Shown: positions 27,229 through 36,902, counted from the first letter of the stretch. The stretch is 64,000 bases of DNA from Acidovorax sp. (GCF_046339755.1 NZ_JBKDTZ010000201.1:1878-65877), one strand, 5' to 3'. Notes: a model not told the origin generated them from the sequence alone. Translations and numbers: made by a program.

Positions 27229-29721
27229 ATGAACCTTTTCAAGCTGGCCTGGCCTGGCGCTGCCGATGACCAGGAGGATATGTCCGAGCAGCAGGTCATC
27301 ACGTCGGCCCACGCCTGGCGCGGCGCCGGTGGAGGGCGGGGGGCTGCTTCAGGCATGCGGCTTGATACCGACGCTGGACGGCGCGAACTGGCGCTGGAAC
27401 AGGAGGTGCAGCGGCTTGTAGAGATCAACCCTGCCAGCCGTGAGAGGCTGCGCGCGCTGGCGCAGTTCAACCTGTCCCAGCCGGTCATCGAGCAGAAGCC
27501 TGTGGACCGGGAGGCGCAGTACATGGCGCTGGGCTATGCGACTGCCGATGCCACTGGCAACGCGCGGTTCGACGCCAATCTGGAACAGCGCCTGAATGCG
27601 CGGACGCAAAAGGCGCGTCCTGACGCCGTGATAGGCGAGCGCATCGTGCAGCGCTACAACCCCAATTCTGAGCGCGAGCGCGTGGCCGCCGAAGAAAAGG
27701 AAATGCGTGCCTTGCGCGCCGATGCCCGCCAGCGCGCCGCAGCGCAGGAGATGCCGTCCGTGGTGCGAGGGCTGGCGCAGGGTGCGGGTGGGCTCTATGC
27801 AACCGCCATGGGCGCAGCAGGCCTGGCGGGTGAATTGACCGGTAGCGAGGATCTGCGCGATTGGGGTCTGGAGGGGTACCGGGAGACCATGCGCGGCGTC
27901 AACAACATCGGTCTTGCCCCGGGCTTCACCGGCATCCGCAACACGGGCGATGCAGTGGAATAGGCGCTGGAGAACAGCGGCTATGCAGGTTTTCAGGCGG
28001 CGACCACCATCCTGTCGGCCGGCATGGGCGGCCTGATCGCCAACACCGTGGGCAAGAAGGCGCTGGGAGAGGCGGTCGGCATTGCCTTGAACAGCACCGT
28101 TCAGACCTTTGGTTCTGTCTTTGGTGAGGCGGTTGAAGAGGCGCGCAGGACTGGCAAATCCCTCGATCTCTCCACGATGCTGGCCGGTGCCACGGTCTCC
28201 ACCGCCATCGACACGCTTGCGGATCGGATAGGCCTGAACGCCCGGAGCACCCAGGCATTCAAAGGCAACGCGCTGGAACGCCTGGGCAAGTCCGTGGGCA
28301 TCCAGATGGCCGTGCAGGGAGGGACCGAGGCTGTGCAGCGTGTGCCTGAAGAGTTGGGCGCTGGCCGAGATCCGCTTCGTAAGGGAACTGGCGCCCAGTA
28401 TGTGGATGACTTCGCAGCCGGCGCCCTGTTCGGTGCCCATGCCGGCACGGTGGGCGGCTTGCGCGGTGGCGAGCCAACTGGAGCGTCGGCCCAGCCTGGA
28501 GCACACAGGGCCGATGTGCCAATGGTTGGGGAGCAGCACACCACGCCAACCCCACCAGTGCATGCCGAACAGGCTTCTGCATTGCCTGAGGACTACTTGC
28601 CCATGCCTTCCGACCTGCTGCCTGATCGCGCCCTGGGCGGGGTCGAGCGCGCGAACCCGCCAGCGGCGCAAGGGGGCTCTGAGCTTGCGATGGTAAGCGA
28701 GCCTGCCGCGCACATGGCACGGGCAACAATGGATCCTCAGGGGGGTGCAGCGCAAGCCGAGCCGGCTCAGGAAGTGGCCCAACCTATGGCCGCCGCTGTC
28801 CTGCGGATGGACACGCAGCCCACCGGCACGCTGGCCGTGACGGGATATCCGGCGCTCATCCGCGACGCCTTGTTGCAGGCGGGTGTTGCTGCTTAGGATA
28901 TCTTCCCAAGATCCCAAGGCGCTTTGGTGGCGCCCCGAAGTGCCAAGCGCGCCTGGGGGATATTGTCGCCCCTTGCGCAGGCTCTGGACGCAGGTTCAGG
29001 GCGCCAGGGGCCTGTCTTGCCGGTCGCATCCCCTGCCTTGACTCCTTCGCATCCGGGAATGGTTTTGTTGGATGGAGGCTCGCTGGCGGTAACGGGCGGT
29101 GATCCTGCCGAAATTGTGGATCAACTCCTTCGGGCTGGGATCGGAGAGACTGAGCGGTTGCAAATTCCAGGAGGGGTGCTGGTGCCGCCAGGCAGTGTCC
29201 AGAAAGTGCTGCAGATTTTCTCGGCGACAGGTGCTGAAAAGCTTGTGCCAGCGCGCTCTGGTTTTCACAATGGTGCACAGGCATTCGATGGGCCGCCTGC
29301 CTGGCCCATGCATGCATTGCCGCCAGGGCCGGTTTTTGCGAATCGATTTCCCGACGACGCAAGCGAGCTTCGCGATGTGCCGGCCTTGACGACAGACCAA
29401 GCGTTGAGAATGCCTGCAAATGTTCTCTATGTGGTCAAGGAAAATGGTGCGTTGATCATGGCGCGCAAACCGCACGATCCGGGAGGTTTTGGCCATGTTG
29501 ATCTGGCACGAGGAGAAAAGGTCATTGCCGCCGGTGAAGCCAAGGTGCTGTGGGGAACTGTCAAGTACATCGATAACGCATCAGGCCACTACCTCCCCAA
29601 CGGAGACGCAGCGGCGGCGGCCGCAGTCAAGGCCTTTCGCAACCATGGCTTCCAAGTTTCTGATGAAAGATACATCAACAAAATCTTTGACTTCAAGAGC
29701 AGGAAATGGGTGAAGAAATGA
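27229..29721 (+). CDS. large phage internal/ejection-like protein with toxin-like C-terminus; interrupted by two in-frame TAG codons (27961, 28894)
   Basis: ORFs 27034..27963, 28024..28896 and 28924..29721 are in one frame with only single TAG codons between them. ATG at 27229 after GGAG. Coiled-coil N-terminal part, Gly/Ala-rich zipper-like middle. A ~40-aa module (..LAVTG.P..I.D.LL.AG...G.LV.P.S) is repeated across the second TAG. The last ~130 aa are lower-GC. Confidence 0.6.
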
Positions 29722-30134
29722 ATGATCTCATCGTCGAAAATTTCAATACGTTGTGTCAAAAATTCCGCTCTGTGAACTACGCTGAAACCGGCGAAGATGA
29801 GATGGAGCCTTTGTACGAGGAACTGCTAGGTCTTTTGCAGCGTAACGCTCAGCACCGCCAGCAGTTGGCGCAGCTCCTTATGGACGACATCCGTCGGCAG
29901 CGGTATGGCGGGCGGCAGGGCGAGATATGCTTTTCGGATACCGCCATAGGGTATTGCATGCGAGAACTTCGTTGGCCGGAAATCCTGGCGTTTGCTCAGC
30001 AGGAGAATTTCGAGTTCCACTCCAGAAAGATGTCAACCGCCTTGCATAGCATTTTGGAGGCTTACGACGATGAATGGCCAGATGCAGTATTTTTCCGTCG
30101 CTTCGGTGGCGGCAGGGATGCTTTGGGCGGTTGA
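29718..30134 (+). CDS. immunity-like small acidic protein
   Basis: ATGA overlap with the stop of the toxin-like ORF. Lowest-GC stretch of the region. 138 aa, acidic (MNDLIVENFNTLCQKF...EDEMEPLYEELLG...). No family recognised. Confidence 0.55.
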   Translation: MNDLIVENFNTLCQKFRSVNYAETGEDEMEPLYEELLGLLQRNAQHRQQLAQLLMDDIRRQRYGGRQGEICFSDTAIGYCMRELRWPEILAFAQQENFEFHSRKMSTALHSILEAYDDEWPDAVFFRRFGGGRDALGG

Positions 30135-30222
30135 GTTTTCTGATTTGTGATCGCCCGTTTTTGGAGTGTCCTGTGCCCAGGGGCAATTTCGTCTGCACCC
30201 GATAAACCCAAGTAGGATTGAG

Positions 30223-30531
30223 ATGGATCGCTACGCAGGCAAATCCTTTTTGAGGCTGCTGGACAGCTACTTTCTGGATGTGATCGGCCAGTTGGGGGAG
30301 GCTCAGAACGCTGCACTGGTTGCCATGCAGCCGCGATTGGCCGCGGTGTACCGCGACCGGGGGTCGTAGCAGGAGATCGTGGCCAGGCAGATGGATTTTC
30401 CACCGGGCGTGACCGATCGGGTGCAGATGTTCTCGAGCAGCTACCAGGAGGTATGCCAGATAAATCGGCTGCAGCCCGATGCGCTCGCCTTTGTGGCGTC
30501 TTTCGTCCGCCAGAATTTTTCCGACATCTGA
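30223..30531 (+). CDS. small conserved-looking hypothetical protein with an in-frame TAG at 30367
   Basis: MDRYAGKSFLRLLDSYFLDVIGQLGEAQNAALVAMQPRLAAVYRDRGS-TAG-QEIVARQMDFPPGVTDRVQMFSSSYQEVCQINRLQPDALAFVASFVRQNFSDI*. Both halves are in the same frame with sensible composition. A terminator follows. Confidence 0.5.
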
Positions 30532-30549
30532 TGGGGAATCCGATGAGCC

Positions 30550-36118: not shown

Positions 36119-36144
36119 CCCTCCCACAAAGGAACAGCAGCCCC

Positions 36145-36588
36145 ATGGCCAATACCTACTACCACCGCGTCTTCAACCCGCTGCCCGGCCAGCGGGTGGA
36201 CGAGCAGGTCCTCAAGGACGAATTCCAGCGCATCGAGCTGGGTTTCGACGGCGTGGCCACCAAGGCCGGGCAGACCGATGCCGGCCTGGCAACCAAGGCC
36301 AACCTCGCCGGCGGCAACGCCTTCACGGGCGATCAGTCCATGGCCGGCAACCTCACGGTGGCTGGCGCCGTCACCGCCAACACGCCGTTGCCCCCGGGCG
36401 ACAACAGCCAGGCCCTGGCCAGCACGAACTGGGTGCAGGCATGGGTCAGCGCCCGGGCCGGCGAGACCATTGGCCTGCCCGTGGCACCGGTGCAGGCCCG
36501 GCCGCTGGCGCTGTTCGTGGTCCAGGGCGTGCACCAGTGGGCGCCGGTGCAATCGCGCAGCAAGGTTTTCTATCTTTCAGGAGCTTGA
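36145..36588 (+). CDS. phage tail-fibre-like protein (short)
   Basis: MANTYYHRVFNPLPGQRVDEQVLKDEFQRIELGFDGV...LAGGNAFTGDQS...SQALASTNWV is a typical tail-fibre N-terminal pattern. RBS AAGGAA. Confidence 0.6.
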   Translation: MANTYYHRVFNPLPGQRVDEQVLKDEFQRIELGFDGVATKAGQTDAGLATKANLAGGNAFTGDQSMAGNLTVAGAVTANTPLPPGDNSQALASTNWVQAWVSARAGETIGLPVAPVQARPLALFVVQGVHQWAPVQSRSKVFYLSGA

Positions 36589-36593
36589 TCGAC

Positions 36594-36902
36594 ATGGCCA
36601 ACGGACGCCTTTTTGCACTGGACCTGGCTGCGGCCACGGCCACCACCCTCTACCAGCCCGCCACGCAGACTGCCACACTCACGCTGTCGCTGGTCAACCG
36701 CAACACCTGGGCCGTGCTGGCCCGCGTGGCCCTGGCGGCTGCGGCCACGCCCACCGATGCGGAGTGGATCGAGTACGACGTGTACCTGCCGCCCTCGGGC
36801 GTGCTGGAGCGCACGGCCATTGTGGTCGGGCCGGGCCAGTACTTGGTGGCCCGGGCCAGCGCGGCCGGGGTATCGGCCGTGGGCTTCGGCTTCGAGGAAT
36901 AG
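36594..36902 (+). CDS. hypothetical phage-module protein
   Basis: ATG at 36594, 6 bp after the fibre-like gene. 102 aa. Ends with TAG. Confidence 0.5.
   Translation: MANGRLFALDLAAATATTLYQPATQTATLTLSLVNRNTWAVLARVALAAAATPTDAEWIEYDVYLPPSGVLERTAIVVGPGQYLVARASAAGVSAVGFGFEE

Follow-up and report, generated by a model that had tools for sequence, protein, structure and literature searches.

A podophage head-tail block in Acidovorax as one piece of a dispersed, co-marked phage element: a candidate particle-forming system

Ten genes of phage type stand in one row, all on the + strand, at positions 27229-36902 of a 64,000-nt stretch of Acidovorax DNA (hereafter the window), with host genes on both sides. 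The window corresponds to C201:1878-65877 of a 7.3-Mb, 419-contig genome (G000), a metagenome-assembled genome (MAG) obtained from a freshwater metagenome; the GC content of the window is 68%. An earlier note, made from the window itself, had described this block as a podovirus-like structural module stranded without portal, terminase, integrase or replication genes, and had offered three explanations: a prophage remnant, one piece of a rearranged prophage, or a domesticated particle-forming module. The comparisons presented below show, at the level of gene content and order, that the block represents the late head-tail segment of an ancient temperate short-tailed phage which has been fragmented and whose other modules are found at other loci of the same genome.

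The rest of the phage at other loci of the genome

The proteins of Xanthomonas phage DES1 were used as tblastn queries over the genome, and the identities of the matches were confirmed with Pfam and PHROGs. No DES1-type terminase protein TerL or portal was detected on C201, so the description of the window as lacking both holds. The block is thus stranded with regard to the window; this does not extend to the genome, where the portal, TerS, TerL, a cI-like repressor, a replication protein, a giant protein and a fibre are encoded elsewhere (Table 1). The search for portal and terminase in the rest of the genome, proposed in the earlier note, led to an SU10-type portal on contig C246 (PF23899 SU10_portal, 56 bits) and to TerS and TerL on C237, with Terminase_6N and Terminase_6C of TerL on two open reading frames (ORFs). 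The cI-like repressor (phrog_4, 1.6e-21) and the replication protein (phrog_22470) are encoded near TerS/TerL on C237 and are conserved at this locus. The giant polyvalent gene is cut by the assembly, and its ends on C201 and C246 are joined on contig 11 of A. soli; in other carriers of the element its open frames measure 1488-3269 aa, the A. soli copy having a RadC/JAB domain.

Altogether, the pieces occupy at least five loci: repressor/replication/TerS/TerL, portal plus three genes, the giant gene, the two transcription units of the window block (TU1 and TU2), and the fibre. The portal block, the giant gene and the window block follow one another as in the ancestor inside some 65 kb, with the giant gene inverted, and are separated by 17-kb and 27-kb stretches of ordinary genes (RCC1-repeat proteins, hydrolases, an oxidoreductase and others). 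Two adjacent RCC1-repeat proteins of ~650 aa are encoded on the - strand at window 709-4638, with the giant phage gene to one side of them and the host block to the other. The ancestral order is known because a related prophage of Acidovorax sp. A1169 (G072:C2) is contiguous, with all element genes in one row: TerS, TerL-N, TerL-C, portal, three genes, a 2385-aa polyvalent protein (SLT, LPD3 and LPD38 domains), Arc, ORF6N, scaffold, capsid, small protein, adaptor, nozzle-position protein, two small proteins and a 527-aa fibre. In this prophage TerL-N and TerL-C overlap by ATGA, indicating that the division of TerL into two ORFs is native to this phage type. The carriers A1169 and Root219 also hold this 79%-identical contiguous prophage, and the other five carriers do not.

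The dispersion was also observed in a better assembly. In carrier G073 (30 contigs), TerL and the portal are located at 269 kb and 442 kb of contig C3, 173 kb apart and in the same orientation, and the complete prophage in canonical order that correctly assembled flanks might have revealed did not appear. With these 173 kb from TerL to portal and about 65 kb from the portal to the last gene of the window block (P10), the span of the element is >240 kb. In the genome under study, the modules are distributed over C237, C246, C201 and C183 with host genes between them, which is not the arrangement of an intact excisable prophage, and no integrase was seen at the loci examined. Among the three explanations, it is thus that of one piece of a rearranged prophage which the matching modules at other loci establish.

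Several observations were made on the contigs that hold the pieces. An AbiEi/AbiEii type IV toxin-antitoxin pair follows TerL-C directly (C237:13697-15602); it is present in A. soli and CF316 and replaced in G072 and G073. The TerS-side locus also contains an inserted siphovirus-type tail fragment of ~10 kb and about 58% GC (C237:22000-32000), absent from CF316 and A1169, with genes for a lambda-type tail tube protein (PF08813) and a Gly-rich tail protein and a 1770-aa ORF that resembles a tape measure. The region C79:1-8600 was considered as a part of the element and rejected as the tail end and lysis cassette of another prophage; it encodes a 68%-identical paralogue of P10, a 527-aa fibre, a holin (PF16082), a lysozyme (PF00959) and a HicB-like antitoxin.

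A palindrome common to most of the separated pieces, and their inheritance

Both transcription units of the window block are preceded by the 10-bp palindrome GCATATATGC. Seven copies of this palindrome are present in the 7.3-Mb genome, and five of them are located 45-440 nt upstream of g1 (the first gene of the block), the scaffold gene, the portal, the giant gene and the fibre. The remaining two lie inside genes, for an α/β-hydrolase and a TIR/SEFIR protein, a number that matches the chance expectation of about two. Five other carriers have 4-7 copies each, so that 26 of the 32 copies in the six carriers are found at element loci. No copy was obtained with a reversed-pattern control, and five complete genomes of non-carrier Acidovorax contain 0, 0, 0, 3 and 0 copies.

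Homology between species begins exactly at the palindrome. A second conserved box (ACAnTG) is found about 30 nt downstream of every palindrome copy (e.g. window 30680-30715 and C183 ~40020-40055), and the leaders of the scaffold and fibre genes have a near-identical stretch of ~33 nt in common despite their unlinked loci. RNA folds of the leaders 3' of the palindrome gave weak z-scores and no common structure. The palindrome is also present before the scaffold gene in two distant relatives (capsid 70-75% identical), where the giant gene is placed just upstream. These relatives, MAG contigs L042 and L044 (capsid 75% and 70% identical), look like contiguous phages or prophages of the motif-bearing lineage, and in L044 a giant ORF of at least 2744 aa lies directly upstream of the scaffold-gene region. 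In the contiguous A1169 prophage the portal follows TerL without a gap; in the dispersed element it has a palindrome copy of its own, which suggests that its expression was restored after the separation from TerL. These data show, as judged from motif position and distribution, that the pieces at four of the five loci, all but that of TerS/TerL, share a specific, near-private upstream signal.

The portal was found at 88-100% identity in 7 of 67 Acidovorax species genomes, namely G000, CF316, A. soli S00198, Root219, A1169 and two MAGs; these carriers include all six of the 67 genomes that measure 6.8-7.5 Mb. Comparison of the locus across strains, another of the checks that had been proposed, revealed that the head-tail block is syntenic in seven Acidovorax species, standing between the same host genes in all seven carriers. 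Synteny was also observed for the TerL and portal loci in the four or five genomes compared, and the fibre locus is present in five.

Ratios of nonsynonymous to synonymous substitution rates (dN/dS) were calculated pairwise by the Nei-Gojobori method against six other species (Table 1). The dS values of TU2 (0.14-0.37) were similar to those of flanking host genes (0.19-0.34). The fibre has a high dS, as would be anticipated for a protein that binds receptors. Every ORF of TU2 is intact in the seven species; in a simple neutral simulation, about 8 stop codons were added to TU2 at only 5% divergence, vs none observed. A frameshift in the portal of Root219 (G053) was rejected as an N-gap artefact, a single N replacing 11 nt at the same position in the C12 and C1 copies, and probably results from the assembler meeting two copies. 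Altogether, synteny and substitution patterns show that the pieces are vertically inherited and kept by selection. The option of a decaying remnant accordingly fails for TU2, which is intact and constrained, and is applicable to TU1, with its in-frame TAG codons.

Layout and gene content of the block

Genes in the window were called from an ORF listing and an analysis of reading frames by GC content at third codon positions (GC3). Most of what had been noted on the architecture was borne out by this analysis: the ten co-directional ORFs on the + strand, the ATGA couplings (overlaps at 29718-29721 and 34070-34073), and the terminator at the left edge, a hairpin-plus-T-run at 27067-27085 that had been placed at 27067..27092. 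The nearest genes on the left are indeed host genes, for a methyltransferase, a glyoxalase-fold protein, a SHOCT protein and a membrane protein (end 27030), followed farther left by LysR, TctC and pyridoxal phosphate enzyme genes. The lipid-pigment cluster reported on the right is an aryl-polyene cluster with an acyltransferase, an acyl carrier protein and an ApeI-type dehydratase fusion. What did not stand was the single block. The ten genes are co-directional, but they form two transcription units rather than one, TU1 (27147-30570, three genes) and TU2 (30646-37025, seven genes), because of the strong terminator at 30550-30570 and the palindrome copy at the start of each unit.

Comparison of the DNA of both flanks with five complete non-carrier Acidovorax genomes gave short family-level matches only, too little to reconstruct the empty-site state. 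Contigs of public runs X16 and X17 that hold the block end or diverge exactly at window 36907, and in X17 the first aryl-polyene genes are hardly covered, so the right-hand neighbour may differ in some strains.

Table 1. Features of the window block and of the matching pieces on other contigs (window positions unless a contig is named)
Feature	Position	Strand	dN/dS	Remarks
Intrinsic terminator of upstream host membrane-protein gene	27067..27085	+		left edge of block
Palindrome, copy 1	27147..27156			82 nt upstream of g1 start; kept in CF316, Root219, A. soli
g1, 830-aa polymorphic-toxin-like / ejection-type protein, pseudogene here	27229..29721	+		TAG at 27961-27963 and 28894-28896
Immunity-like small acidic protein	29706..30134	+		142 aa from 29706, or 138 aa from ATGA-coupled ATG 29718
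Small gene (phrog_21050), possibly orphan immunity gene	30166..30531	+		in-frame TAG 30367-30369
Intrinsic terminator, strong	30550..30570	+		closes TU1
Palindrome, copy 2	30646..30655			130 nt upstream of scaffold-like gene
Scaffold-like Ala/Gln-rich helical protein	30776..31855	+	0.23	position before capsid gene, composition; phrog_13678
Major capsid protein, HK97 fold, DES1/StenR_269 ('N4-like') type	31953..32945	+	0.044	profile matches
113-aa head/neck-associated small protein	33015..33356	+	0.11	conserved in all relatives
Head-to-tail adaptor, SU10 type	33375..34073	+	0.086	PF24175, 3e-13
682-aa protein in nozzle / tail-hub position	34070..36118	+	0.13	phrog_5107; DES1 845-aa homologue
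147-aa fibre-like protein (P9)	36145..36588	+	0.37	weak phrog_4849
102-aa tail-end protein (P10)	36594..36902	+	0.062	weak tail-fibre PHROG; precedes ~527-aa fibre gene in related prophages
Terminator	37008..37025	+		closes TU2; right edge of block
TerS and two-ORF TerL, then AbiEi/AbiEii	C237:15658-18243		TerS 0.10; TerL-N 0.10; TerL-C 0.09	
Portal and homologues of three downstream genes	C246:17465-23401		portal 0.18	
Giant polyvalent gene	N-terminus off start of C201, C-terminus at start of C246			HExxH in C-terminus
520-aa fibre gene	C183		0.17 (dS 1.2-1.7)	

Profile searches with PHROGs and Pfam supported the capsid, adaptor, nozzle-position and fibre-like assignments proposed for TU2. 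The capsid protein matched phrog_1357 at 1.5e-61 over residues 14-328 and PF25209 (Phage_capsid_4) with 43.4 bits (cut-off 27), gave weak matches to capsid chains 9d7z, 9d82 and 9bgn of the PDB, and is 39-42% identical over its full length to those of Xanthomonas phage DES1, StenR_269, Pun_Y3 and Rollin. The resemblance to N4 that had been suggested for this protein is sound, since the StenR_269 capsid was called N4-like by its authors (PMC10747016). The adaptor, whose gene is located 3' of the capsid gene and is ATGA-coupled to the 682-aa gene, matched PF24175 (SU10_adaptor) over residues 1-217 with 51 bits (cut-off 27). The 682-aa protein matched phrog_5107 at 3e-17 and is homologous to the 845-aa protein encoded downstream of the adaptor in DES1. 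No match to this protein was found in the PDB by single sequence or by profile, the SU10 nozzle included, and its AlphaFold2 model from an 8-sequence alignment (pLDDT 48) did not resolve the fold; its neighbours in the Atlas are hypothetical proteins of viruses, and a small number of P22 gp10 or pb9 families lower in the list serve as leads only. The putative nozzle identity is based on the place of the gene in the block and on its homologues among phage tail genes. P9 and P10 gave weak tail-fibre PHROG matches, and the product of the first gene of TU2 is called scaffold-like solely from its position and composition.

The first gene of TU1, g1, had been taken for an open gene encoding a large ejection-like protein, which does not apply to this genome, where it is interrupted by two TAG codons. 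In Acidovorax sp. CF316 the gene is an intact frame of 830 aa with W and E at the two sites. The TAG of the third gene is also found in CF316 and is replaced by W in Root219. With three in-frame TAG codons, TU1 is decaying in this genome. Recoding or suppression of TAG was considered and rejected: two of the three sites are occupied by sense codons in CF316, and TAG also terminates other module genes. It is disfavoured as well by a DUF1643 pseudogene of the element, which is broken by TGA, and by TAG being the stop most easily reached from GC3-rich codons.

The C-terminal ~150 aa of g1 form a variable domain of low GC. The orthologues of CF316/G000, Root219 and A. soli are alike in their N-terminal body but end in three C-terminal domains unrelated to one another, and the small ORF that comes next differs in each case. 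The family has 14 members, one with an N-terminal SLT domain and one with a weak C-terminal match to a WHH nuclease; in this genome g1 had no match in Pfam, PHROGs or the PDB, its BLAST comparison with the giant proteins was not significant, and the Atlas neighbours of its C-terminus are unnamed. A complex between the g1 C-terminus and the downstream 142-aa protein was predicted with an interface score (ipSAE) of 0.81, the best control giving 0.00; among solved complexes, 51 of 78 attained that mark, and among mismatched pairs 2 of 108. At least 77% of the contacts agreed between runs, and the pLDDT of the partner was at least 81. TU1 is absent from G019 and partly replaced in G072, G073, G053 and G050, being truncated in G072 and G073. 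The conserved N-terminal body, the interchangeable C-termini and the adjacent predicted binding partner are the features of a polymorphic toxin with its cognate immunity protein, and TU1 reads as an accessory polymorphic toxin-immunity cassette on the phage-derived element, with a presumed toxicity.

A candidate particle system, its rivals and the closest known systems

With rather better than even confidence, we favour the interpretation of the element as an immobilised, stretched temperate podophage kept as a co-regulated particle system, which would resemble a gene transfer agent (GTA) or work by lateral transduction and would possibly carry a toxin. Of the explanations offered at first, the domesticated particle-forming module is thus the one preferred for the element as a whole, in view of the synteny in seven species, the purifying selection and the shared private motif. 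The palindrome would be a late-gene control site (promoter or operator) firing the dispersed units together, with a cI-type switch or a host signal as the trigger. The products would assemble short-tailed particles of ~80 nm, and packaging by headfuls, begun at a pac site close to TerS, would load them with adjacent host DNA, because the element spans >240 kb and the genomes of the nearest phages, taken as a guide to head capacity, measure 61-66 kb. Particles of this kind would behave as a GTA or as lateral transducers. TU1 would add an optional toxin and immunity protein, the toxin probably loaded as an ejection protein; in this genome it is inactivated.

Two traits of GTAs were found in the element. 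Its phage-derived particle genes are fixed in the chromosome, vertically inherited and under purifying selection, and, going by the genome sizes of its nearest phages, it appears too large and dispersed for its own capsid. A number of observations weigh on the other side. Unlike classical GTAs, the element has retained the cI-like repressor and the replication protein, which suggests either that domestication has only begun or that an immobile prophage can still be induced. The element loci yielded neither a holin nor an endolysin, and the only lysis cassette seen, on C79, is that of the other prophage. In dispersed copies the TerL halves are split by a variable insert of 0.7-1.4 kb, and the activity of such a TerL is putative; the insert of G000 is a DUF1643-like pseudogene with an in-frame TGA (C237:16408-17108), whereas unlike sequences of 0.8-1.4 kb occupy this place in the remaining carriers. 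The palindrome is absent from the TerS/TerL unit and from the contiguous A1169 prophage. The carriers are close relatives (dS about 0.2-0.3), which limits the case for long-term domestication. Furthermore, the source genome is a MAG in 419 contigs. Contigs with the block from metatranscriptome X16 and three runs of uncertain type were not used as evidence of transcription since they are indistinguishable from DNA carry-over; one of them is 11.9 kb long, across both strands.

The particle might have been domesticated mainly as a weapon that delivers a g1-type toxin and the giant polyvalent protein to competitors, with DNA transfer being incidental. The conserved N-terminal body of g1 with three unrelated C-termini in three species, the different small ORF after each of them, and the predicted binding of the g1 C-terminus to the downstream protein all fit such a role, as do the placement of g1 under the same palindrome as the structural units and the SLT, JAB and HExxH domains of the giant proteins, which are typical of injected proteins (PMC5512222). 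However, TU1 is broken here, cut short in G072 and G073 and absent from G019, and TU2 by contrast is strongly constrained, so the toxin cannot be the reason why the particle genes are kept; moreover, the packaging of g1 is only assumed. We consider this explanation rather unlikely.

A low probability is also given to an inert prophage wreck, that is, remains of an old lysogen which insertions and inversions have dispersed, not yet degraded and without a role. Decay is evident in TU1, with its three TAG codons here and its absence or partial replacement in other species; the DUF1643 pseudogene in the TerL gap and the 10-kb siphovirus tail fragment on C237 are insertions of the kind supposed, and lysis genes are lacking at the element loci. 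On the contrary, the core ORFs are intact in seven species with dN/dS of 0.04-0.18 and host-like dS, in place of the many stop codons predicted by the neutral simulation, and the palindrome is conserved at five loci.

The genes could also be kept for their interaction with infecting relatives, whether to defend the host or act as a decoy by disturbing assembly, or to assist related phages or satellites such as the contiguous prophage of A1169 and Root219. Two carriers hold the contiguous prophage of the same type, and the defence genes AbiEi/AbiEii stand right after TerL. This explanation appears improbable as well: constraint is equal in the five carriers without a contiguous copy, the contiguous phage has no palindrome, and a full co-marked set of TerS, TerL, portal, scaffold, capsid, adaptor, nozzle-position protein and fibre exceeds what interference needs. 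Finally, the splitting of an intact prophage over the contigs of a fragmented 419-contig MAG, in which the giant gene does break the assembly, is highly improbable given the host genes on both sides of the block within one contig, the same junctions in the isolate genomes of CF316, Root219, A1169 and A. soli, and the 173 kb between TerL and portal on one contig of G073.

How a prophage becomes a GTA is an open question. Known GTAs are few, mostly siphovirus-like, and long past the stage of domestication. If the proposed particle system were confirmed, the element would offer a snapshot of the birth of a GTA, with the cI switch and the replication genes still present. It looks like an intermediate: immobilised by large insertions, it has kept repressor, replication and packaging genes, its late genes are constrained, and a near-unique signal marks each separated fragment, even the portal, which ancestrally needed no promoter of its own. 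In its most specific form, the proposal would be that of the first podovirus-derived GTA-like system of Betaproteobacteria, carried by a clade of soil and freshwater Acidovorax and spanning >240 kb and five co-regulated loci, with a private palindromic control site newly acquired by each late unit, with ~80-nm particles that package host DNA and with swappable toxins; this we put forward tentatively, as less likely than not. A literature search found no description of such an element or of a GTA in Acidovorax or other Betaproteobacteria. The hypothesis is directly testable, since the element is present in the cultured isolates CF316, Root219, A1169 and A. soli S00198, and the 10-bp palindrome is a handle to find the regulator and to scan genomes for scattered phage regulons.

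Among free-living phages, the closest to the element are DES1 of Xanthomonas and StenR_269 of Stenotrophomonas, podophages assigned to unclassified Caudoviricetes with genomes of 64.7 and 66.3 kb, the latter with a head of ~80 nm and the N4-like capsid mentioned above (PMC10747016). They have in common with the element a capsid 41-42% identical over its full length, the order TerS, TerL, portal, scaffold, capsid, adaptor and large tail protein, and a very large virion-type protein (PMC10747016). In contrast to these contiguous phages, the element is chromosomal, vertically inherited and distributed over at least five loci and >240 kb, and the split point of its TerL differs from theirs. Escherichia phage SU10 (Kuravirus), with its portal-adaptor-nozzle tail (PMC9509320), resembles the element in that the SU10-based Pfam families match portal and adaptor; it differs in its capsid type and in its nozzle, which has no detectable sequence match to the 682-aa protein.

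Regarding the accessory proteins, likenesses to the polyvalent proteins and polymorphic toxins described previously (PMC5512222) are seen in the SLT, LPD3 and LPD38 domains of the giant protein of the contiguous relative, in the RadC/JAB domain (A. soli copy) and the HExxH motif (C246 piece) of the dispersed giant, and in the swappable C-termini and adjacent small partner genes of g1. Unlike known polymorphic toxins, g1 has no Pfam domain in this genome and 14 relatives, and its toxic activity is presumed.

By its multilocus organisation, RcGTA of Rhodobacter capsulatus (PMC5026251) is the closest conceptual analogue. Both systems have phage-derived structural genes at several loci, vertical inheritance, purifying selection and an apparent co-regulation, and both are too spread out to be packaged whole. 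On the other hand, RcGTA, an alphaproteobacterial system, is siphovirus-like with small heads, no longer has its repressor and replication genes, and is controlled by the host regulators CtrA and GafA, whereas the element is podovirus-type and betaproteobacterial, carries its own palindromic signal, and has kept the cI-like repressor and the replication genes.

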